11,123 nucleotides of DNA from Deferrisomatales bacterium (GTDB lineage: Bacteria; Desulfobacterota; Deferrisomatia; Deferrisomatales; JACRMM01), in assembly GCA_033551855.1 (NCBI GenBank), contig JAWSUI010000086.1, forward strand, positions 1-11,123, in the 5' to 3' direction. The stretch's first letter is position 1. Every line of letters starts with the position of its first letter. Shown one piece after another: positions 125 through 10,242 of this stretch. The translations under genes and the position numbers were made by a program. The notes below the pieces were generated by a model. It was not told where the DNA came from. It searched no databases and worked only from the letters and a program-made list of their open reading frames with translations.

Positions 125-198
125 TCTAAGGGGGGCGAAGCGCGGGGGCTGTGAGGTTGGGCACAAGGGCAGGTGTGAGAGAACCCGGGAGGCAGGCG

Positions 199-1197
199 GT
201 GAAGAGGAACGGTCGGCACGGGGGGAGCACGGTTCGAGGAGTCGCCTTGGCGGCGGTTCTCGGCCTCTGCCTCGCGAGCCCGGGGGCGGCGAACCAGGGC
301 GAGGGCGAGGCCCGGCCCGTAATCACGGCATCCTACCTCTACAGCCTGTCCGACTTCACCGGCACGCTCCCCTTCACCTGGGTCCGGGTCTCGGTGGACG
401 ACCTCCGGAACGAGGTCTACGTGGCCGAATCCGGGTCGGTCTCGATCTTCAACGAGGCCGGGATGGAGATCTACCGGTTCGGCGAGGACGAGCGGCTGGG
501 CCAGGTGCTCGACGTGGCGGCGCTGGCGAGCGGCGACCTGCTACTGCTGACCCATCAGGGGCACGATTCCACGCCCTCTCTCGTCCGGTGCGACTATCGG
601 GGCGGCTTCCTCGAGCGGCGGCCTCTCGCGGGCCTCCCGTCGGAGTGGGAGGGTTCCCGAGGGTTTCGGCCTACCCGCATGGTGCTCCGGGGCGAGACCC
701 TCTACCTGGCCGACCTCTCGGGGATGCGGGTCGCCGTGGCCGACGCGGCGGGCGCGGTGCGCGAGACCGTGAGCCTGGGGCCGAAGCTCCAGATGACCGG
801 GCAGCAGGTGGGCGACTCCGGGCTGGGGGGGTTCGACGCCGGCCACGACGGCACCCTGTACTTCACCGTGCCCACCCAGTTCCGGGCCTTCCGGATGGCG
901 CCCGGACGAGAGCCCGAGGGGTTCGGGCAGGCGGGGAGCTCGCCGGGCAGGTTCGGGGTCATCGCCGGCATCGCCGCCGACCGCAACGGCACCCTGTACG
1001 TGGTCGACACCCTCAAGTGTGCCGTCATGGCCTTCGGGGCCGACCTTGAGTTCGCCACCGAGTTCGGGTACCGCAGCTTTCGCCGGCCCGAGGGGCTCAT
1101 CGCACCCAAGGAGGCCACGGTAGCCGACAACGGCCGGCTCTACGTCACCCAGCAGGCCCGGAAGGGGGTGAGCGTCTTCCGGGTGGGCGTCAACTGA
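199..1197 (+). CDS. Secreted NHL-repeat / 6-bladed beta-propeller protein, resembling the gene found upstream of omcS in Geobacter
   Basis: Hydrophobic signal segment VALAAVLGLCLASPGAA. NHL-like blades: EVYVAESGSVSIF, LYLADLSGMRVAV, GIAADRNGTLYVVDT, VADNGRLYVTQ. Start placed at GTG 199 because GGGAGG (187-192) precedes it; the ORF track starts at 151. Confidence 0.85.
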   Translation: MKRNGRHGGSTVRGVALAAVLGLCLASPGAANQGEGEARPVITASYLYSLSDFTGTLPFTWVRVSVDDLRNEVYVAESGSVSIFNEAGMEIYRFGEDERLGQVLDVAALASGDLLLLTHQGHDSTPSLVRCDYRGGFLERRPLAGLPSEWEGSRGFRPTRMVLRGETLYLADLSGMRVAVADAAGAVRETVSLGPKLQMTGQQVGDSGLGGFDAGHDGTLYFTVPTQFRAFRMAPGREPEGFGQAGSSPGRFGVIAGIAADRNGTLYVVDTLKCAVMAFGADLEFATEFGYRSFRRPEGLIAPKEATVADNGRLYVTQQARKGVSVFRVGVN

Positions 1198-1230
1198 GGC
1201 TGAGGCGCGGGAGGCGCACCGGCATCATCA

Positions 1231-1257
1231 CAACCGAGGCAACCGAGGCAACCGGGG
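1231..1257 (+). repeat. Short tandem repeat, 3 x 9 bp (CAACCGAGG, CAACCGAGG, CAACCGGGG)
   Basis: Directly visible in the 304-bp intergenic leader. A second direct repeat, GCAGCACCG, occurs at 1321-1329 and 1337-1345. Confidence 0.8.
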
Positions 1258-1388
1258 CCCGTCGCTCGAAACCGCGATCCACCGGGGGAAAAGGAGGGGA
1301 GAAGACACCGCGAAGCGGAAGCAGCACCGGAGCAACGCAGCACCGAGTTGGTTACACAGGCGAGAACGGTCACGGAAGACGCACATCA

Positions 1389-1474
1389 TCCTCCGAGAAG
1401 GGCAAACCCGCCGCGAGGCGGGGGCGCAACGCCGACGGGCCTCCCCCCGGGGAGGCGGCCGGGCTGCCGGAGGA
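1389..1474 (+). ncRNA. GEMM-I (c-di-GMP-I class) cyclic dinucleotide riboswitch aptamer
   Basis: P1 is TCCTCCG (1389-1395) pairing with CGGAGGA (1468-1474). P2 is GGGCAAACCCGCC-GCGA-GGCGGGGGCGC with a GNRA tetraloop. The junction is GCAAC-GCC, and P3 ends in GCCGGGCTGCCG. Ligand-contact equivalents (Vc2 numbering): G20=1401, A47=1428, C92=1467. It sits directly upstream of the omcS-like gene. Confidence 0.9.
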
Positions 1475-1501
1475 ACCACCAACCCCACACGGGAGGATGA
1501 G

Positions 1502-2752
1502 ATGAGGATTCGCAGCTTCACCCTGGCCCTCGCGGCCGCAGGCATCCTGTCCCTGGGTCTGGCCTCCACCGGCCTGGCCCTCCACGACGGCGGCGTCGCC
1601 CGGTGCGAGGCCTGCCACACCATGCACAACTCCCACAACGGTGCGATCCACGACGCCGATTTGATCGCCCAGTTCACCACCGGCCCCATGCTCCTCAAGG
1701 GCTCCGACGCGAGCTCCGCCTGCCTGAACTGCCACGCCAGCACAACGTTGTCCAGCTACCGGGTCCTCACCACCGGGCTGAGCCCAGAAGGCATTCCCGC
1801 CCAGCGCACCCCCGGCGGCGACTTCGCGTTCCTGCTCGTCGGCACGAGCGCTGAGAGAAAGTCCATGCGGGGCCACAACGTCATCGCCCTCGACAGCGGC
1901 CTAGCCGCGGACACCCGTGATGGTATGGCGACCGGCCCCGGCGGCGACTACCCCAATGCGGACCTCGGCTGCCACAGCTGCCACGACCCCCACGGCAAGT
2001 ACCGGGTGGACGCGGACGGCAACGTGAGCACCACCGGCCTGCCGATCTCGAAGTACGGCTCCTACGGCGAAGGTAACTCCGCATACGCCCCCACCGGGAC
2101 CGCCGCGGTCGGCGCCTACCGCATCCTGGCCGGCACGGGCTACCTGCCCAAGTCCCTGGAAGATACCCCGGGTCTGGCCTTCGTGAACCAGGTCCCCATG
2201 GCTCTGACCAAGAGCACCTACAACGTGGCGAACACGGACACCAAGGTGGCCTACGGCTCGGGCATGAGCGAGTGGTGCGCCAACTGCCACGGCCAGATCT
2301 ACAACGACAATTATCCCACCCACCTGCGGCACCCCTCGGGCGACGCGGCGAAGCTGCCCTCGGCCATCGTCGCCAACTACAACGCCTACGTGAAGTCCGG
2401 CGACATGACCGGCACCTTCGATACGGCCTACTGGACCCTGGTCCCCTTCGAGAAGGGCCTGGGCTTCGCCGACCGCGATACCCTGGCGGGCTTCCTGACC
2501 ACCGACGAGACCAAGGGCGCGGCCGCCACCGACAACGTGATGTGCCTCTCCTGCCACCGCGTCCACGCCAGCGCCTTCGACCACATGCTGCGCTGGGACG
2601 ACTCGAAGAACCTGGTGGCGAGCGGCGGAGCGTACCCGGAATCGGGCGGCCTCACAGTCGAGCAGATCCAGGCCGGCTACTACGGCAAGCCGGCGACGGA
2701 TTTCGCCACCTACCAGCGCTCGCTCTGCAACAAGTGCCACGCGAAGGACTGA
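1502..2752 (+). CDS. omcS: OmcS-family hexaheme c-type cytochrome (probable major nanowire subunit), 416 aa
   Basis: Sec signal peptide, then LHDGGVARCEACHTMHNS. Six CxxCH: CEACH, CLNCH, CHSCH, CANCH, CLSCH, CNKCH. OmcS hallmark segments: AQFTTGPMLL, TPGGDF, CHDPHGKYR, GMSEWCANCH, YQRSLCNKCHAKD. SD GGGAGG at 1491-1496. The family is secure; orthology to omcS versus omcT is inferred from position. Confidence 0.93.
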   Translation: MRIRSFTLALAAAGILSLGLASTGLALHDGGVARCEACHTMHNSHNGAIHDADLIAQFTTGPMLLKGSDASSACLNCHASTTLSSYRVLTTGLSPEGIPAQRTPGGDFAFLLVGTSAERKSMRGHNVIALDSGLAADTRDGMATGPGGDYPNADLGCHSCHDPHGKYRVDADGNVSTTGLPISKYGSYGEGNSAYAPTGTAAVGAYRILAGTGYLPKSLEDTPGLAFVNQVPMALTKSTYNVANTDTKVAYGSGMSEWCANCHGQIYNDNYPTHLRHPSGDAAKLPSAIVANYNAYVKSGDMTGTFDTAYWTLVPFEKGLGFADRDTLAGFLTTDETKGAAATDNVMCLSCHRVHASAFDHMLRWDDSKNLVASGGAYPESGGLTVEQIQAGYYGKPATDFATYQRSLCNKCHAKD

Positions 2753-2793
2753 GCGGGGCCGGGGCGTGAGCTCCCTTCCCTCTGCGTGAGGAC

Positions 2794-2833
2794 GGGAGGG
2801 GCCGGGTCGTCCGGCCCCTCCCCTTCCTTTTTT
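2794..2833 (+). terminator. Intrinsic terminator-like / mRNA-stabilising hairpin after the first cytochrome
   Basis: 12-bp perfect stem GGGAGGGGCCGG (2794-2805) / CCGGCCCCTCCC (2811-2822), followed by CTTCC and T6 (2828-2833). Confidence 0.75.
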
Positions 2834-2892
2834 CGGGTTTTCGGCAGGTTTTGGCGGTCACGGACGAGAAGCGGGGCGGCGGGGAGGGTCCG

Positions 2893-4128
2893 ATGGGTTC
2901 GAGACGAAGAGCCATTCTGAGCCGGGGCCTCGCGGTGGCGCTCGCGGCGGCGGCCGCGGTGGGGGCCCTCGGGGCAGGCGGCCTGGCCCACGGGTTCCAC
3001 TTCGGCGGGGTCGGCGAGTGCGCCGGGTGCCACACCATGCACAACTCCCTGGGGGGGGAGCGGATGACGGTGAACGACCTGCCCGCCGGCACGGCCAACC
3101 CGTACCTGCTGCGGGGGTCCGACGCCAGCTCCACCTGCCTGGTCTGCCACCACACCACCGCGACCACGCCACAGACCTACCACGTGAGCAGCCCCCGCAC
3201 CGGCGGGCCGCCCATGCCCAGCCAGATGACCCCGGGGGGCGACTTCGGGTGGGGGGCGGCCGGGCCGTCGGGGCAGCCTCCCATCTACCAGAGGGCCCAC
3301 AGCATCGTCGCGGCCGACTTCGGGTACGGGCCCGACACCACCCTGACCCGGGCGCCCGGGGGCACCTACTCCCGCGACGACCTGAGCTGCGTGAGCTGCC
3401 ACGACCCCCACGGCCGGTACCGGCATCTGCCGGGCACCGGCGAACAGGCGCTGACCGGGGCACCGATCCGCGAGTCGGGGTCCTACGGGGCCGAGCCCGA
3501 CGCCGCCTCGGCGGTGGGGGTGTACCGGCTCCTGGGCGGGGTCGGGTACCGGCCCCGGGCCGTGGCCGGCGAGCTGGCGTTCGCCGGCGCCGCGCCCGTG
3601 GCGGTCTCGCCCGAGGACTACAACCGGGCCGAGTCCGAGTCCGACACCCGGGTGGCCTACGGCCTGGGCATGTCGGAGTGGTGCCAGAACTGCCACGGTC
3701 TGATGCACAGCGACGACTACCCCGGCTACCCCGGCAACTTCCGCCACCCGGCGGGCAACCACGCCAAGCTCGGGGCCCGGATCGCCGCCAACTACAACCG
3801 CTACGACCTGCGCACGGGCGCCGTGGACGCCGACGGCTCCCAGGCGTACACGTCCCTCGTGCCCTTCGAGAGGGGCACCGCCGACCGCGCCGAGCTCCTG
3901 GCCGCCACGGAGTCCACCGCGGGTCCCACCACCGGGAGCGAGAACGTGGCCTGCGTGAGCTGCCACCGGGCCCACGCCTCGGCCTTCGCCGACCTGGGGC
4001 GGTGGAATTTCAACGCCGTTCTGCTCACCCAGCCGGGGTTCTTCGCCAAGTACTACTACGACCGGCCCGCGAGCTACTTCGGGCCCTTCCAGCGGTCCCT
4101 CTGCAGCAAGTGCCACGTGAGGGACTGA
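2893..4128 (+). CDS. OmcS/OmcT-family hexaheme c-type cytochrome, paralog 2 (411 aa)
   Basis: ATG 2893 follows GGAGGG. Signal peptide, then FHFGGVGECAGCHTMHNSLGG. Six CxxCH: CAGCH, CLVCH, CVSCH, CQNCH, CVSCH, CSKCH. Ends FQRSLCSKCHVRD. Confidence 0.92.
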   Translation: MGSRRRAILSRGLAVALAAAAAVGALGAGGLAHGFHFGGVGECAGCHTMHNSLGGERMTVNDLPAGTANPYLLRGSDASSTCLVCHHTTATTPQTYHVSSPRTGGPPMPSQMTPGGDFGWGAAGPSGQPPIYQRAHSIVAADFGYGPDTTLTRAPGGTYSRDDLSCVSCHDPHGRYRHLPGTGEQALTGAPIRESGSYGAEPDAASAVGVYRLLGGVGYRPRAVAGELAFAGAAPVAVSPEDYNRAESESDTRVAYGLGMSEWCQNCHGLMHSDDYPGYPGNFRHPAGNHAKLGARIAANYNRYDLRTGAVDADGSQAYTSLVPFERGTADRAELLAATESTAGPTTGSENVACVSCHRAHASAFADLGRWNFNAVLLTQPGFFAKYYYDRPASYFGPFQRSLCSKCHVRD

Positions 4129-4195
4129 GATGCGCGCCGCGAGGGAGTGCGACCGAGGGAACGGGAGCCGGGGAGCGCCGGGAGGGAGGGCGACC

Positions 4196-5581
4196 ATGGG
4201 CGCGAGCAAGAGCGTGAAGGTGTTCCTGGCCGCCGGGCTCGCCGTCTGGGCGTTGGGGGCGGCCCCGGGGAGCGTGCGGCAGGCGCAGGCCTACACCGAT
4301 TACTACCAGACGGGAGTCGCCACCTGCAACGACTGCCACGTGGGGCAGGGGTACGGCTTCCACCGGGGCGGAGTGGCCCGGTGCAACGGCTGCCACACCA
4401 TGCACAACTCGCAAAACGGCACCCTCATGACCTACAACCGGGGCGGGTCGGTGGGCTCGTCCTTCCCGTCGCTCCTGCGGGCCAGCGACCCCACCTCGGT
4501 GTGCCTGTACTGCCACCATAACAACGCCGGGCACCGGGACGAGCGGATCGACATCATCGTGAGCACCTTCCCCACCCCGGCGAACCTGACCCCGGGGGGG
4601 GACTTCGGGTGGCTCAAGAAGAACTATGCCTGGTCCGGCGGGGCGAGCCCCGGGGCGGCCCACGGCCACAACGTGGTGGGCCAAGACTTCGGGTACACGG
4701 CCGACCCGCGCTTCACCGAGGGCCCGGGGGGCGCCTACCCGGCGGCGACCCTCTCCTGCGTGAGCTGTCACGACCCCCACGGCCGGTACCGCCGGCTCGG
4801 CGACGGCTCGGAGATTCCCGAGGGGGTGAGGATCCGAAGCTCCGGTTCCTCGGGCCAGGCGCCCGGGAGCTACGCGGTGGGCTCGTACCGCCTCCTGGCC
4901 GGGGCGGGGTACGCCACCTCCCAGGCCCCGGAACACGCCTTCGTGCACCGCACGCCGGTGGCCGTGCTGCCGAGCTACCCGGTGAACGAGGACTGGGACA
5001 CGGGCAGTACCTGGCGTGACACGGTGAACCGCTCCGAGGCCGTCTCGGACACCCGGGTGGGCTACGGCACGGGCATGGCGGAGTGGTGCGCCAACTGCCA
5101 CGCGGCGATCCACAACCCCAGCTACCCGGCAAACCTCCGGCACCCGGCGGGGAGCACCGCCCAGCTCGGCTCGGCCATCGCGGCCAATTACAACGCCTAT
5201 GTGAAGACCGGCGACCTCTCCGGCTCGGAGGCCGCGTCGTTCACCTCGCTGGTCCCCTTCGAGACGGGCCAGACCGACCTGGCGCTCCTCCAGTCGCTGG
5301 CCACGAGCTCCACGGCCGGCCCCCAGGCCGACGCCAACGTGAGCTGCCTCACCTGCCACCGGGCCCACGCCTCGGGCTGGGACAGCATCGGCAGGTGGAA
5401 CTTCCAGACGACCTTCGTCACCTACGCCGGAAACTGGCCCGGCACCGACGGGGGAGACCCCGAGGAAACCCACCAGGGCCGCACCCGGGCGGAGACCCGG
5501 CTGGCCTATTACGACCGTCCCCCGACGCGGTTCGCGACCTACCAGCGGTCGCTGTGCAACAAGTGCCACGTGAAGGACTAG
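4196..5581 (+). CDS. OmcS-family cytochrome, paralog 3, with seven CxxCH motifs (461 aa)
   Basis: ATG 4196 follows GGAGGGAGGG (4181-4190). Signal peptide ends AQA. Motifs: CNDCH, CNGCH, CLYCH, CVSCH, CANCH, CLTCH, CNKCH. Contains TPGGDFGWLKK and YQRSLCNKCHVKD. Confidence 0.92.
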   Translation: MGASKSVKVFLAAGLAVWALGAAPGSVRQAQAYTDYYQTGVATCNDCHVGQGYGFHRGGVARCNGCHTMHNSQNGTLMTYNRGGSVGSSFPSLLRASDPTSVCLYCHHNNAGHRDERIDIIVSTFPTPANLTPGGDFGWLKKNYAWSGGASPGAAHGHNVVGQDFGYTADPRFTEGPGGAYPAATLSCVSCHDPHGRYRRLGDGSEIPEGVRIRSSGSSGQAPGSYAVGSYRLLAGAGYATSQAPEHAFVHRTPVAVLPSYPVNEDWDTGSTWRDTVNRSEAVSDTRVGYGTGMAEWCANCHAAIHNPSYPANLRHPAGSTAQLGSAIAANYNAYVKTGDLSGSEAASFTSLVPFETGQTDLALLQSLATSSTAGPQADANVSCLTCHRAHASGWDSIGRWNFQTTFVTYAGNWPGTDGGDPEETHQGRTRAETRLAYYDRPPTRFATYQRSLCNKCHVKD

Positions 5582-5589
5582 GCTCGAAC

Positions 5590-5613
5590 CGCCAAGACGC
5601 CAAGGGCGCCAAG
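5590..5613 (+). repeat. Triple CGCCAAG short direct repeat
   Basis: CGCCAAG at 5590-5596, 5598-5604 and 5607-5613, immediately after the paralog-3 stop codon. Confidence 0.7.
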
Positions 5614-5646
5614 GTTGGTTCCGTCGGTCGCGAATCACGGGCTAGT

Positions 5647-5696
5647 TCCTCCCCCTTCAAGGGGGAGGACAGGAGGGGGATGGGGTTTCTGAAGGG
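5647..5696. repeat. Extragenic palindrome with G-rich tail (BoxC / potential-intrastrand-triplex-like), copy 1
   Basis: TCCTCCCCCT-TCA-AGGGGGAGGA 10-bp stem, followed by the purine tail CAGGAGGGGGATGGGG and TTTCTGAAGGG. Confidence 0.7.
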
Positions 5697-5774
5697 CAGG
5701 GGAGGAAAGTGGGCTGGGCAAGGGTAAGCCCCAGTAGAAACGGCGCCAACGGTTGCGGGATTCCATTCAGGTCG

Positions 5775-5783
5775 TGCTAGAAT
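5775..5783 (+). promoter_or_regulatory. Possible sigma-70 extended -10 element (internal promoter for accessory genes)
   Basis: TGcTAGAAT about 60 nt upstream of the ATG at 5842. A weak -35-like TTGCGG lies at 5753-5758 with a long, 19-nt spacer. Confidence 0.4.
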
Positions 5784-5799
5784 TCACTGGTCGTGACCC

Positions 5800-5830
5800 A
5801 AGGGGCCGGCGCGAGCTGGCCCCTTTTCTT
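5800..5830 (+). terminator. Terminator-like hairpin directly upstream of the YVTN gene RBS
   Basis: GGGGCCGGC-GCGA-GCTGGCCCC stem (one G-U pair) with a GNRA loop, followed by TTTTCTT. Confidence 0.6.
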
Positions 5831-5841
5831 GAGAGGGAGAG

Positions 5842-7242
5842 ATGAGGCGACTCGCCACCCTTTGCGCCGGACTCTTGCTGCTGGCCGGGTGCCAGGTTCG
5901 GGCAGTGCGCACCGAGGCGCCCCGGGGGGATGGGGGCAGCGTGTACGTGTACCTGCGGCCCCTGCCCGAGGGGGCGGCGCGGCTCCGGTTCACCCTGGAG
6001 GGCGCAGCGGCGGTGAGCGCCGAGGGGCACGCCGTGCCCCTGGAGCTTCGGCTGGGCGAGCTCGACGGACGCGCGCCCGGGCGCCAGCGGCTGCTGGCCG
6101 CCGGGCGGGTGCCCCCGGGATCCTACCGGGGGCTCTCTCTGGCCGTAGGCAGGGCCTGGCTGCGGGGCGAAGACGGGGAGGCCGCGCTCCTCGTGCCGGA
6201 GGAGCCGGTTTCGGTGGAAGCGCCCTTCGCGGTGGGCCGGGCGGAGGCGGCGCTCGTGGAGGCGGCGCTCCGCACGGAGGGCGCGGTGGACCAGGCCTTC
6301 CGGTTCGCGCCCGCCTTCGACGCCTACGTGCCCCCACGCCCGGTCTTCAGCCGCATCGGGTACGCGGCGAGCGCGGCCGAGGACCACCTGGCGGTCTTCG
6401 ACCGCAAGACCCTCGAGGTGGTCTCCGTGATCGCCACGGGGCGGGGGCCGAGCTCGGTGGTCCTGGACGAGCGCTCCCGCCGGGCGTACGTGGCGCTGGC
6501 GGAGGAGGACGCGGTGGAGGTGGTGGACGTGGCGGCGGGCCGGGTCACGGCCCGGGTGCAGCTCCGCTCCGGGGACCGGCCGCAGTGGCTCGCGCTCACT
6601 CCCGGCGGGCTCCTGCTCTGCGCCAACCGCGACACCGACAGCCTGAGCCTCATCGACGGCGGATCCGCGGTGGAGATCGGCCGCCTCCCGGTCGGCGACG
6701 AGCCCGTCTTCGTGCTCGTGGACCGGCCCGGGCGCCGGGGCTACGTGTTCAACGCCCGCTCCGACACGATCTCGGTCCTCGACCTCACCTCGCGGTCGGT
6801 GGTGGGGGAGCTCCCCGTGGAGGCCGGGCCCTTCCGGGGTTCGATCAACCGGGCCGGCGACCGGCTGTACGTGATCCATCGAGGCTCCCCCTACCTCCTG
6901 GTCGTCGACACCCGAACCCTGGCGCCGCTGGAGCGCGTCCTGGTCGGCCCGGGGGCGAGCGCGGTCCACGTGGACCTGCGCACCGATTTCGTGTACGTGG
7001 CGAATCGTGGTTCGAACCGGGTGGACCTCTACGACCCCTTCTCGCTCCTCCCCGTGGACTTCCTGGAGGCGGGCGGAGCCCCGGCCGACCTGGTCATCGG
7101 CGACGAGGAGAACCGGCTCTTCCTGGCCCTGCCGGAGCAGGGGGCGGTGTCGGCGGTGGACCTCATGGGCATGCGCCTCCGGGGCCTTTTGGAGGTGGGC
7201 CGCGAGCCGCGCTCGCTGGCCGTGTGGGGGGCCCGGGATTGA
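5842..7242 (+). CDS. Lipoprotein with an N-terminal beta-rich domain and a C-terminal YVTN/YncE-type beta-propeller (466 aa)
   Basis: Lipobox LLAG-C17. Repeated blades: RAYVALAEEDAVEVVD, LLCANRDTDSLSLID, GYVFNARSDTISVLD, VYVANRGSNRVDLYD, with TGRGP / VGDEP / VGREP turns. Purine-rich RBS at 5831-5841. Confidence 0.88.
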   Translation: MRRLATLCAGLLLLAGCQVRAVRTEAPRGDGGSVYVYLRPLPEGAARLRFTLEGAAAVSAEGHAVPLELRLGELDGRAPGRQRLLAAGRVPPGSYRGLSLAVGRAWLRGEDGEAALLVPEEPVSVEAPFAVGRAEAALVEAALRTEGAVDQAFRFAPAFDAYVPPRPVFSRIGYAASAAEDHLAVFDRKTLEVVSVIATGRGPSSVVLDERSRRAYVALAEEDAVEVVDVAAGRVTARVQLRSGDRPQWLALTPGGLLLCANRDTDSLSLIDGGSAVEIGRLPVGDEPVFVLVDRPGRRGYVFNARSDTISVLDLTSRSVVGELPVEAGPFRGSINRAGDRLYVIHRGSPYLLVVDTRTLAPLERVLVGPGASAVHVDLRTDFVYVANRGSNRVDLYDPFSLLPVDFLEAGGAPADLVIGDEENRLFLALPEQGAVSAVDLMGMRLRGLLEVGREPRSLAVWGARD

Positions 7243-7343: not shown

Positions 7344-7379
7344 GAGGGGACGACGGCGTTAGCGGCCGTTGCTCATGCT

Positions 7380-9542
7380 TTGCGGCGTCGCGCCCGCCTG
7401 ACAGCCCTCTGGTCCGTCGTTCTGGCTACGCTTTCGGCTTTGCTCGGTCCGCCCGGAGCCCGGGCGGACAGCCTGCGGAGCACGGTGGAGTACAATTACT
7501 CGGTGGCCGACTCCGAGACCCGCACCGAAGGGGGCGAGACCACCCGTACGGAATCGCGAACCTTCGGCCAGCGCTACCGCCTGGGCTTCGAGAAGACCTT
7601 CTACCCGTACCTCACCCTGCGCGGGGGCGGGCTCTTCGAGAGGATCGACTCCTCGGTGGAGGCCGACGCCGGCGACTCGGACGCGACGTTCACGCGCCTG
7701 AACCCCTTCGCCGAGCTGGTGCTGGGGAGCCCCCTGTACTCCGCCGCCCTGGGGTACAACCGCCAGGAGGAGAAGAGCGAGAGCGGCGGCGTGAGCGACA
7801 AGAGGATCCGCGACCTGTACACCGCGCGGCTCGGCTGGCGCCCGGTGGACGCCCCGTCTCTCAACCTCCAGTACAGCCGCACCGACACCTACGACCCCGC
7901 CCGGCGGGACGAGGACGGCACCCGGGAGTTGTTCCAGCTCACCTCGCGGTACCGGCCGGTGAGCACGGTGGACCTGACCTACCAGGGCTCGCTGAGCCAG
8001 AGCGAGGACCGGCTGTCGGGCGTGGAAACCGAGGAGATGACGCACTCGGGCCGCGTCGCCTACGACGACCGGTACTGGGACAACCGGCTCTCCCTCAGCA
8101 CGAGCTACGCCGTCTCCCACCGGACCACTGAGACCCGGGCCCCGGCCGGGGCCGAGGTGACGGTGGAACAGGGCGCCCTGCGGGCCCTCTCGGCGCTGGA
8201 CGACACGGTGGACCCCATCGAGCTCGCCGACGCCCCGGCTCTGCTGGCCGGGAACGCGGGCGTCCCCATCGGCCTGCCCTCGGCCGGGGCCTTGGAGCCG
8301 CTGCGCCAACTGGGCCTGCAGTTCCTGGACGGCACCGAGGTCAACGCCCTCCGGGTCTTCGTGAACCGCGACGTCTCTTTGGACTCCCCGTTCCCGCCGT
8401 TCCGGTGGGAGGTGTACGAGAGCACGAACAACGAGGACTGGCGCCTGGTGCAGGGGGCCTCCGCCGCGACCTTCGTGCGGCAGTTCGAGACCTTCTGGTT
8501 CGAGGTCCGATTTCCCAGGGTCGCGAGCCCCTATGTCAAGGTCGTGGTGAGCCCGCTGGTCCTGCCGGGGGTCGCCGAGATCCGGGTCACGAGGCTCCAG
8601 GGGGCCTTGATCCTTCCCGGGGAGGAGGCGCGGGGCGAGACGCACCGCACGAGCCACCTGGTGAACCTGGCGGCCCGCGCGCGGCTGCTGGAGGACCCGA
8701 GCCTCTTCTACACCTTCACGCTGCTGCACAGCCGGAGCGATCCGGACACGGTGACCCGCACCCTCGTCTCCAACGGCCTCTCGGTCAACCGCCGGCTCCG
8801 GCCCTGGCTGACCGGGGCGGCCCAGGTCGCCCGGGACGACGCGGACGAGACGGCGGGCCGGCGGGTGGACTACCGCTGGGGGGCCTCCCTGAACGCGACG
8901 CCCCTGCCCACCCTGACCCAGACGGCGGCCTACAGCGGCCGCCGGTCGCAGACCGACGAGGGGACGAGCCGGCGGCAGTCGGTCTCTCTCAACAACCGGG
9001 CCGCCCTGTATCGGGGGGTGGATGTGCTCCTCAACGGGGGGGTGAGTGAAGCCTTCCGGGAGGACGGGCAGAGGACCCGGAGCTACCTGGTGAGCGCGGG
9101 CGCCGAGGTCACGCCCCACCCCGCGATGACGTGGAGCGTCTTCTACTCCGCCGATTGGTCCGAGCAGTCGGGGGGCGACCGCCCCGACGCGAGCACCTCG
9201 ACCCGGCGGGCCCGGGCGAGCGTGGGGTGGAACCCCCTGCCCGCGGTGAACCTGTTTGCGTCGGTGGACCGCGTGGACCGGGAAGAGGGGGTGACGACCC
9301 TGTACAACTGGTCGGGCAACTGGTCCCCCTTGCGGGACGGGACCCTGCAGCTGAGCTTCTCGTACAGCGAGAGCCTGCGGCCGGAGGACGAGGCCAAGGA
9401 CCGCATGATCGGCCCGAGCCTCCGGTGGGAGATCCGCAGGGGAACCTTCCTGGACCTCTCGTACAGCTACCTGGAGAGCGAGACCGCGACCCAGGAGACC
9501 GTCAGCCGGATGATGTCGGGGAACCTGCAGGTGAATTTCTAG
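7380..9542 (+). CDS. Large outer-membrane beta-barrel protein (about 720 aa) with a central inserted soluble domain
   Basis: Signal peptide (M)RRRARLTALWSVVLATLSALLGPPGARA. Many amphipathic alternating strands (QRYRLGFEKT, YTARLGWRP, SLNLQYSRT, YRWGASLNATP, LQLSFSYSE). C-terminal GNLQVNF ends in Phe, as BAM substrates do. The start is uncertain: TTG 7380 is chosen, with no close SD. Confidence 0.8.
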   Translation: MRRRARLTALWSVVLATLSALLGPPGARADSLRSTVEYNYSVADSETRTEGGETTRTESRTFGQRYRLGFEKTFYPYLTLRGGGLFERIDSSVEADAGDSDATFTRLNPFAELVLGSPLYSAALGYNRQEEKSESGGVSDKRIRDLYTARLGWRPVDAPSLNLQYSRTDTYDPARRDEDGTRELFQLTSRYRPVSTVDLTYQGSLSQSEDRLSGVETEEMTHSGRVAYDDRYWDNRLSLSTSYAVSHRTTETRAPAGAEVTVEQGALRALSALDDTVDPIELADAPALLAGNAGVPIGLPSAGALEPLRQLGLQFLDGTEVNALRVFVNRDVSLDSPFPPFRWEVYESTNNEDWRLVQGASAATFVRQFETFWFEVRFPRVASPYVKVVVSPLVLPGVAEIRVTRLQGALILPGEEARGETHRTSHLVNLAARARLLEDPSLFYTFTLLHSRSDPDTVTRTLVSNGLSVNRRLRPWLTGAAQVARDDADETAGRRVDYRWGASLNATPLPTLTQTAAYSGRRSQTDEGTSRRQSVSLNNRAALYRGVDVLLNGGVSEAFREDGQRTRSYLVSAGAEVTPHPAMTWSVFYSADWSEQSGGDRPDASTSTRRARASVGWNPLPAVNLFASVDRVDREEGVTTLYNWSGNWSPLRDGTLQLSFSYSESLRPEDEAKDRMIGPSLRWEIRRGTFLDLSYSYLESETATQETVSRMMSGNLQVNF

Positions 9543-9657
9543 CAGGCGAGGTTCCGGGCGCCCCATGCGGTGCGTAGGGGTTGAACATGGGCCTGAAACC
9601 TGCATCCTGGAACCGGGAACGGATTCCGGGACCAACGAGCGACGAGGGCACCCAACG

Positions 9658-10242
9658 ATGAACGCGACCATCCGCAGCGCGATCGCTGCCTTGCTCCTCC
9701 TCCCGCTCGTCGGCGGGTGCGCGACCACCGGGGGAACCCGCTACCACAACCTCCAGATGGACTTCGGATCCCTCCAGAGCGTGGCGGTGCTGCCCTTCGC
9801 CAACCTCACCCGGGACCAGGCCGCGGGGGAGAGCGTGAGGGACGTGTTCACCACCATGCTCCTGGCCACGGGCGCGGTGTACGTGGTGCCGCCGGGGGAG
9901 ACCTTCCGGGGCCTGTCCCGGGCGAACCCCCTGGACCCCACCCGGCCTTCCCCCGAGGAGGTCAAACGCATCGCGGGCATCGTGAGCGTGGACGCGGTGA
10001 TCACCGGGATCGTGCGGGAGTTCGGCGAGGCGCGGTCGGGCCAGGCGGCGGCCAACGTGGTCTCGGTGACCCTGCAGATGATCGAGGCCGAAACGGGCCT
10101 GGTGGTCTGGACCGGCTCCACGACGAAGGGCGGCGTCACCTGGAAGGACCGCCTCTTCGGAGGCGGCGGCCAGCCCATGAACAAGGTGATCCAGGCGGCC
10201 GTGGAGGACCTGCTGGACAAGTTCTTCGAGCCGGTGGAGTAG
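9658..10242 (+). CDS. Lipoprotein, CsgG/GNA1162(DUF799)/LpoB-like fold (194 aa)
   Basis: ATG 9658 follows GAGGG. Lipobox LVGG-C21. Family-typical segments: SVAVLPFANLT, VDAVITGIVREF, VSVTLQMIEAETGLVVWTGS. Confidence 0.85.
   Translation: MNATIRSAIAALLLLPLVGGCATTGGTRYHNLQMDFGSLQSVAVLPFANLTRDQAAGESVRDVFTTMLLATGAVYVVPPGETFRGLSRANPLDPTRPSPEEVKRIAGIVSVDAVITGIVREFGEARSGQAAANVVSVTLQMIEAETGLVVWTGSTTKGGVTWKDRLFGGGGQPMNKVIQAAVEDLLDKFFEPVE

Follow-up and report, generated by a model that had tools for sequence, protein, structure and literature searches.

A seven-motif OmcS-family cytochrome with a conserved N-terminal CxxCH motif and a candidate partner histidine in a Deferrisomatales omcS cluster

The last of three tandem omcS-family genes (p1, p2 and p3) in the window, by which we mean the whole 11,123-nucleotide stretch analysed, encodes a cytochrome with seven CxxCH motifs. 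The seventh motif, which lies in an N-terminal extension ahead of the OmcS-like core, is real and conserved but is not standard among OmcS paralogs, and a second case in a distant OmcS-like family is convergent. Our preferred reading, held tentatively and at somewhat less than an even chance, is that p3 is a minor, still polymerizing subunit in which a bis-His side heme near the exposed heme 2 would act as an electron port.

The third paralog and its surroundings

The seven motifs of p3 start at residues 44, 63, 103, 188, 298, 384 and 454, against six motifs each in p1 and p2, and the extra one precedes the FHRGG of the OmcS-like start, as the first-pass annotation had described in calling this a seven-heme OmcS variant. 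Translation of positions 4292-4405 (YTDYYQTGVATCNDCHVGQGYGFHRGGVARCNGCHTMH) bears out the 22-residue extension ahead of the canonical start, and the positions of the extra copy that match His2 and His16 are indeed occupied by Tyr37 and Gln51. Contigs from four runs (X1, X2, X3 and X8) belonging to four studies span the extension, which rules out an assembly artefact, and none of the 40 differences listed falls within 4286-4350, the flanks being variable. All eight members of the p3 clade have an Ala-x-Ala 11-12 residues 5′ of the extra Cys and behind a hydrophobic core (a heuristic assignment); since this site lies upstream of the extension, the extension should outlast signal cleavage and is very likely kept on the mature protein.

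By sequence, fold and ligands p3 belongs to the OmcS family, although its seven motifs and its extension set it apart from OmcS proper. A phmmer comparison aligns p3 residues 55-461 with the whole 6EF8_A chain (E-value, 6.6e-104). The AlphaFold2 model built from a 150-row alignment (mean pLDDT 86.8) matches 6EF8 with a Foldseek TM of 0.85, an rmsd of 1.6 Å over 387 residues and a VIA Z of 47.6, model residues 22-429 corresponding to chain residues 1-407; it is usable for the core, since residues 1-20, the extension, have a pLDDT of 39-58, and a 7-row alignment of the clade gives a pLDDT of 27. OmcS is described as having 12 His ligands, of which 11 are supplied within the subunit and the twelfth, that of heme 5, by its neighbour (PMC6584659), the donated residue being His16 (PMC13319180). 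Each of the corresponding p3 residues (His 56, 67, 70, 107, 158, 192, 195, 302, 316, 388, 391 and 458) is present in 8/8 clade members. These include His70, the His16 equivalent, a position that the family gives up more readily than any other ligand (retained in 197/215 six-heme relatives and missing from 18). The six-heme proteins that lack it include P0041, P0056, P0066, P0081, L046 and a protein encoded on the minus strand at 11309 of L042 (G000:C24), one of the 18 being encoded in the host genome; from their sequences these are simpler candidates for filament terminators.

The window is an entire contig (G000:C86) of a 4.24 Mb genome of 69.6% GC, and the features discussed here are collected in Table 1. 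The propeller, large-ORF and lipoprotein genes lie 3′ of p3, an order that may correspond to that of an omcS-companion (osc) cluster, in which propeller, barrel, lipoprotein and large multiheme genes come after the omcS-like ones. The YncE/YVTN-type propeller gene is syntenic in L030, L033, L039 and L040; a family search with the large ORF that follows it gave no family match, and an ORF of about 40% identity occupies the same position in L030 and L040. Terminator-like hairpins are also found 3′ of the first paralog in L035, L040 and L030, and thus in all four loci examined, that of L030 being devoid of a T-tail. The hairpin after p1 suggests that p1 would be the bulk subunit, with p2 and p3 minor. 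No sigma-70-like promoter was found in a search of positions 1150-5900.

Table 1. Features of the window, with the basis of each assignment

Feature	Position	Strand	Basis or remark
NHL-repeat beta-propeller gene, 5′ of p1	151..1197	+	weak Pfam NHL match, below cut-off; syntenic in L030, L040
p1, hexaheme OmcS-family paralog, likely major subunit	1502..2752	+	terminator-like hairpin 3′ of p1
Terminator-like hairpin 3′ of p1	2794..2822	+	13 bp stem and T-tail; folding z -4.3
p2, hexaheme paralog, separate conserved clade	2893..4128	+	
p3, seven-CxxCH OmcS-family cytochrome, 461 aa	4196..5581	+	phmmer to 6EF8, AlphaFold2 model
Predicted Sec signal peptide, ending A-Q-A	4196..4291	+	hydrophobic core and Ala-x-Ala, heuristic
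22-aa N-terminal extension with the extra motif ('heme 0')	4292..4357	+	in 7 of the best 120 homologs; L030, L033, L035, L039
Extra C-N-D-C-H motif, aa 44-48	4325..4339	+	C-x-D-C-H throughout the clade
Canonical OmcS start: F55, His56 (His2 equivalent), heme-1 motif C63-H67	4358..4396	+	alignment to 6EF8 residues 1-13
His70, equivalent of OmcS His16 (heme 5 ligand of the neighbouring subunit), retained	4403..4405	+	8/8 of the clade
His247, candidate distal ligand of heme 0 (inferred)	4934..4936	+	sole His both clade-invariant and rare elsewhere
Clade-specific acidic and aromatic insertion, aa 261-275	4976..5020	+	segment length 32-34 against a mode of 19
YncE/YVTN-type beta-propeller gene, opening the companion block 3′ of p3	5842..7242	+	PF21783 above cut-off, TIGR02276
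Large conserved ORF, presumed outer-membrane beta-barrel (inferred)	7374..9542	+	start codon uncertain
GNA1162/LpoB-like lipoprotein gene	9655..10242	+	syntenic in L030, L040

Several smaller features of the locus may be recorded. An in-frame alternative ATG for p3 lies at 4130, 1 nt past the p2 stop, from which translational coupling of p2 and p3 is possible; it would give the long basic N-region that is annotated in several p3 orthologs, and a 26-nt direct repeat (4134-4159 and 4175-4200) lies 5′ of the second ATG. The G+C-rich hairpin at 5646-5668, between p3 and the YncE gene, folds no better than shuffled sequences (z -0.37). The p2 protein, whose clade includes the p2 proteins of L030 and L035, is without the Trp loop that follows GGDFG, and its C-terminal region is shortened. 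The host genome has three matches above cut-off to PF01578 cytochrome c assembly proteins.

The corresponding cluster of another genome of the order (G004:C19) maps in order onto contigs C77, C86, C123 and C24 of the host, and the cluster of the window probably continues, through a repeat-protein gene running from 10340 to the window end, into C123 and C24, where 26- and 16-motif cytochromes are homologous to the next G004 genes. This probable continuation holds three more full-length omcS-like genes and one fragment. The C-terminal fragment, of 111 aa (L042 6676-7008; G000:C24 18675-19007, minus strand), is nearly a copy of the end of a neighbouring paralog and is either a partial duplication, a pseudogene or an assembly artefact.

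Distribution and origin of the seventh motif

A homolog search scored 8000 candidates and gave 4080 matches, of which the best 120 were examined: seven of these have seven motifs (that of the window included), 111 have six and two are fragments. The count of CxxCH motifs ahead of the OmcS start thus finds the extension in 7 of the best 120, in one clade and not as a one-off. The six other seven-motif homologs are 62-69% identical to p3, with scores of 615-708 bits, whereas the best six-motif match reaches 429. Among 148 further representatives at the 50% level the extension is absent, and two of these have a seventh motif at other positions. A scan of 185,579 GTDB genomes and of JGI metagenomes for a CxxCH just ahead of an OmcS start matched three loci in the former and seven in the latter; four of the ten belong to the p3 clade (L030, L033, L035 and L039), two to a second group (L031 and L034) and four are false, L032 being an unrelated cytochrome, L036 and L037 hexaheme OmcS-like genes and L038 devoid of a multi-motif ORF. 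Because the pattern skips members without H-x-G or CH-x-M-H, the scan undercounts the second group. A further region search returned four members, all already in the clade.

Wherever the neighbouring genes are assembled, the seven-motif clade members are the third paralog, before a YncE-type propeller gene. In L030 the order is NHL gene, p1, p2, seven-motif p3, YncE propeller, large ORF and lipoprotein, and the shorter loci L033, L035 and L039 agree with it over their extent. The clade spans distant hosts, since P0277, a fragment from one of the clusters, carries the source label Desulfobulbaceae and L030 has 59.5% GC. The clade is also rare: within the order of the host 2/21 genomes have OmcS-type matches at an E-value of 1e-20, and in the other of the two, G004, the paralogs of the same cluster are all hexaheme proteins. 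The concern that the extension might be standard in third paralogs is not upheld, as in G004, which is of the same family, the last paralog before YncE is a hexaheme protein.

On cores stripped of the extension the p3 clade (clade A) is monophyletic with a support of 100, and it groups near the p2-type proteins and three six-heme proteins (support 87-95). The trees and His counts took proteins of at least 370 aa with at least six motifs, P0238 with its internal seventh motif being set aside, and the eight-row clade counts omit the near-identical L033 and L039. Five OmcS-like proteins (P0238, P0212, L005, L008 and L014) have a seventh CxxCH that is internal or C-terminal, and by the motif counts the superfamily shows several kinds of variation in heme number.

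The first-pass annotation had attributed the extra motif to local duplication, pointing to the similarity between positions 4313-4339 and 4370-4396. These are indeed identical at 22/27 nt with an offset of 57, which is above the motif background: against the 271 other 27-mers that code for CxxCH in the multi-motif ORFs of this genome (mean 15.1, SD 2.1) this pair is the sole one to reach at least 22/27. The same comparison in four ortholog loci gives only 17-18/27, and 34 of the 271 background 27-mers score at least 18. At the protein level the flank of the extra motif is closest to heme 1 (mean BLOSUM 2.8; heme 6 scores -0.6 and each of the others less than -4). Heme 1 therefore stands as the nearest relative, whereas the high DNA match is peculiar to this lineage, and with orthologs at 17-18/27 any duplication would be old and is unproven. 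An old duplication of the OmcS start is plausible on these comparisons; the high DNA identity in this lineage may reflect retention, convergence or local conversion.

The second group was explored with the L031 protein (labelled Candidatus Eisenbacteria; gene at 9082-10158, minus strand) as the seed. Of the 120 OmcS-like proteins retrieved, which are shorter, 23 carry a seventh motif at the N-terminus, 96 have six motifs and one has five. The family also takes in L034 and P0284-P0403; its proteins are about 350-370 aa long, source labels include Candidatus Eisenbacteria and Candidatus Delongbacteria, and G062 encodes both six- and seven-motif paralogs. A tree with a single origin for both seven-motif groups is rejected (AU p 5e-157; 40 rows, LG+G4, cores without the extension, with a long branch between the families), and the N-terminal seventh motif was gained independently in this distant family, where just 1-4 residues precede it. 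The exact CxxCH is retained in all members of both lineages, while flanks and linkers vary (3-9 and 7-13 aa). L031, the single second-family locus mapped, has no companion genes nearby.

Candidate ligands and possible roles of heme 0

Several paralog-specific His residues had been put forward as ligands for the extra heme, and of these only that of PEH, His247, holds up as clade-invariant. This position, which matches approximately Tyr203 of 6EF8, is His in 8/8 clade members against 4/215 six-heme relatives, and each of the 12 additional fragments and cluster members inspected has it as well; it is, however, one among 33 clade-invariant, family-rare positions, so that a His among them is unsurprising by itself, and the six-heme sister P0011 has it too. 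The other candidates fail: AGHR (H113) and FVHR (H251) are His in 1/8 clade members each and ETHQ (H426) in 4/8, while AAHG (H156) is family-wide (170/215). His108 was also considered as a co-acquired ligand and was rejected, being common to p2-type and sister six-heme proteins and missing in 2/8. The clade-specific insertion that follows His247 is 15 aa long in p3 and 13 aa in its orthologs, and lies just ahead of the site at which the second family has Tyr-His; at 277 the p3 clade has Val in place of the family Tyr.

In the second family Tyr-His stands in the column of p3 residues 277-278 in 24/24 seven-motif rows (L031 included) against 4/96 six-motif rows, and these are the only two of five enriched positions to reach 24/24. 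Among the four six-motif exceptions two are N-terminally truncated predictions, and P0298 nests in the seven-motif clade. The His16 equivalent is likewise kept in 24/24. A further His, in H-T-A-Y, is present in 120/120 rows of the family. As judged from these alignments, the N-terminal motif came in both events together with a new His in the stretch that separates the motifs of heme 3 and heme 4, although the two His sites are in different columns (247 and 278) and 'the same segment' is thus meant loosely. Since the rows are kin, the counts amount to two evolutionary observations and not to 32.

Coevolution analysis gave no placement for His247 or the loop 277-282 (Meff 186 and 242, both shallow, the second with a family-level signal), and prediction of a complex of p1, p3 and four hemes (runs at 0.36, 0.01 and 0.01) is evidence neither way. 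Three residues separate the extra motif from His56 in 6/8 clade members, and seven and nine in the other two, so that in most of them heme 0 must be a near neighbour of the heme that His56 ligates, presumably heme 2 if the paired-CxxCH pattern applies.

Under the reading that we prefer, p3 would be exported by the Sec pathway and cleaved after A-Q-A with the extension staying on the mature protein, and the extra CxxCH would be covalently loaded with heme. The distal ligand of heme 0 would be the new His (His247, or the His of Tyr-His in the second family) and not His70, which would be left free for heme 5 of the next subunit, so that p3 could enter the filament. A new heme supplied with a new His of its own makes no demand on His70, which stays available for the junction; this pattern favours a polymerizing subunit with an off-axis heme. 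With a short linker and with His56 on heme 2, heme 0 would lie beside heme 2, which is among the two OmcS hemes with an exposed edge, and off the axial chain, as an entry or exit port for electrons; with p2 and p3 minor by the hairpin after p1, such ports would be sparse along the wire or confined to one end. In OmcS itself heme 502 is described as solvent-exposed edge-on near the subunit interface and has been suggested as a conduit in or out (Filman et al., PMC6584659). The same source leaves charge entry to and exit from the wire open; according to PMC12977616 OmcS is the only one of the paralogs known to form wires, the functions of OmcT, GSU2501 and OmcJ being open. That wire formation is known for OmcS alone, and that p3 has the position of GSU2501/OscC, which one paper lists as periplasmic (PMC13194489), both count against a side port.

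Among the roles proposed at first, electron entry or exit through a branch is the best reading. A cap, an initiator or a five-coordinate heme is less favoured, since all eight clade members keep the bridging His70 and the motif comes with a new His distinct from it. A cap or initiator, which we think distinctly unlikely, would have heme 0 at the place of heme 6/5 of the preceding subunit, ligated by His70 or by the new His, so that other subunits could join p3 only through its heme-5/6 face and p3 would stand at the start or tip of a wire. A paired-CxxCH motif just before 'His2' does correspond to the place of the preceding even heme (an interpretive reading of the L032 and L041 repeats), p3 is likely to be minor and adjoins the companion block, and PMC9473688 names tip proteins as a possibility left unconsidered. 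With His70 on heme 0, however, the new His would be needless, yet it is found in both lineages; a blocked face should let His70 decay, as in the 18/215 six-heme proteins, yet 32/32 seven-motif rows keep it; and the family already offers simpler cap candidates among proteins without His16. Alternatively, p3 may be a monomer or part of a small complex, in the periplasm or at a secretion pore like GSU2501/OscC, in which heme 0 would connect periplasmic multiheme carriers to the base of the wire. The gene position directly before the companion block, the listing of OscC as periplasmic in a table of PMC13194489, the statement in PMC12977616 that polymerization is shown for no OmcS paralog other than OmcS, and the absence of companion genes near L031 all fit such an adaptor, but p3 is not orthologous to the last paralog before YncE in G004 or to the matches from G. 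uraniireducens and G. daltonii, being nearer p2, and a monomer would leave heme 5 without a sixth ligand and the invariant His70 without a heme. We consider it improbable.

Two readings that dispense with the new His are more remote still. Heme 0 might be five-coordinate, as the first-pass annotation allowed, or be ligated by the N-terminal amine, Tyr or Met, and serve as a substrate-binding or catalytic site. The extension has no His beyond that of its motif, and a Tyr lies 6-8 residues before the first extra Cys in 8/8 members of the clade; the Met candidate eight residues before the Cys is variable (M, L, I or Y), and the second family, with so few residues ahead of its motif, has a strictly co-occurring His. 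Slighter again is the prospect that the motif carries no heme, being removed by processing or serving as a disulfide or metal site. Its precedent is the seventh motif of DA_402, which has no paired His and was set aside by its authors (PMC12545173), but both lineages keep an exact CxxCH throughout despite their varying flanks and linker lengths, and a second signal-peptidase site before FH is unlikely, since that stretch has no Ala-x-Ala and lies over 20 polar residues away from the hydrophobic core.

If the side-heme reading is right, p3 is also a model from nature for fitting cytochrome wires with electrical contacts. A broader proposal, which we regard as doubtful, is that OmcS wires are not always sealed homopolymers, with at least two gains of a seventh heme and a new His giving 'tap' subunits doped into the filament; these would provide an insulated wire with an OmcZ-like side port at which electrons enter, leave or branch off to another wire. 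Electron entry and exit of the OmcS chain and the purpose of the paralogs are treated as open questions in PMC6584659 and PMC12977616, and an OmcS-fold protein with one extra heme and a co-acquired His makes ligand and role directly testable, with the second, larger seven-motif family as an independent replicate.

Comparison with known cytochromes

Our literature search found the N-terminal seventh heme of OmcS-proper paralogs undescribed, although Shen et al. 2025 and Wang et al. 2019 may bear on its novelty; in their accessible portions, 10.1101/2025.10.22.684050, PMC9743091, PMC11936953, PMC12307469, PMC10954620 and 10.1101/2022.11.23.517749 contain no seven-heme OmcS, and an atlas search returned paired-CxxCH cytochrome clusters only, with no model. 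The nearest published case is DA_402 of Desulfurivibrio alkaliphilus, an OmcS-like protein with seven CX2-5CH motifs that is distant from OmcS (TM 0.56) and placed in a sister clade (PMC12545173). Its seventh motif is reported there without a paired His and is ignored, whereas p3 is of the OmcS-proper family and has a candidate paired His.

Compared with OmcS of Geobacter sulfurreducens (GSU2504; 6EF8/6NEF), p3 has the same fold, motif order, 12 axial His and F-H-x-G-G-V start, and differs in the seventh, N-terminal CxxCH, in His247, in the 13-15-aa acidic insertion and in Val at 277; it is also the third gene of its cluster and not the first, and the heme chain of OmcS is described as unbranched (PMC6584659). 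In position p3 matches GSU2501/OscC, the last omcS-like gene before the companion block (PMC12977616; the osc cluster is treated further in PMC13194489), although GSU2501/OscC and OmcT, unlike p3, are hexaheme proteins. Proxies for GSU2501 (the last G004 paralog and the G. uraniireducens and G. daltonii matches) do not group with p3 in the tree, and p3 would thus be a positional analogue only, orthology being judged here from the proxies in place of the GSU2501 sequence itself.

The proposed arrangement would work like OmcZ of G. sulfurreducens, a comparison of working principle only. Its sequence and fold are unrelated to those of p3, it is devoid of inter-subunit His ligation, and its branch heme, observed by cryo-EM, belongs to each of its subunits, whereas that of p3 is a proposed side heme; yet OmcZ combines an axial chain with one off-axis, solvent-exposed heme (PMC9473688), much as we propose for p3.
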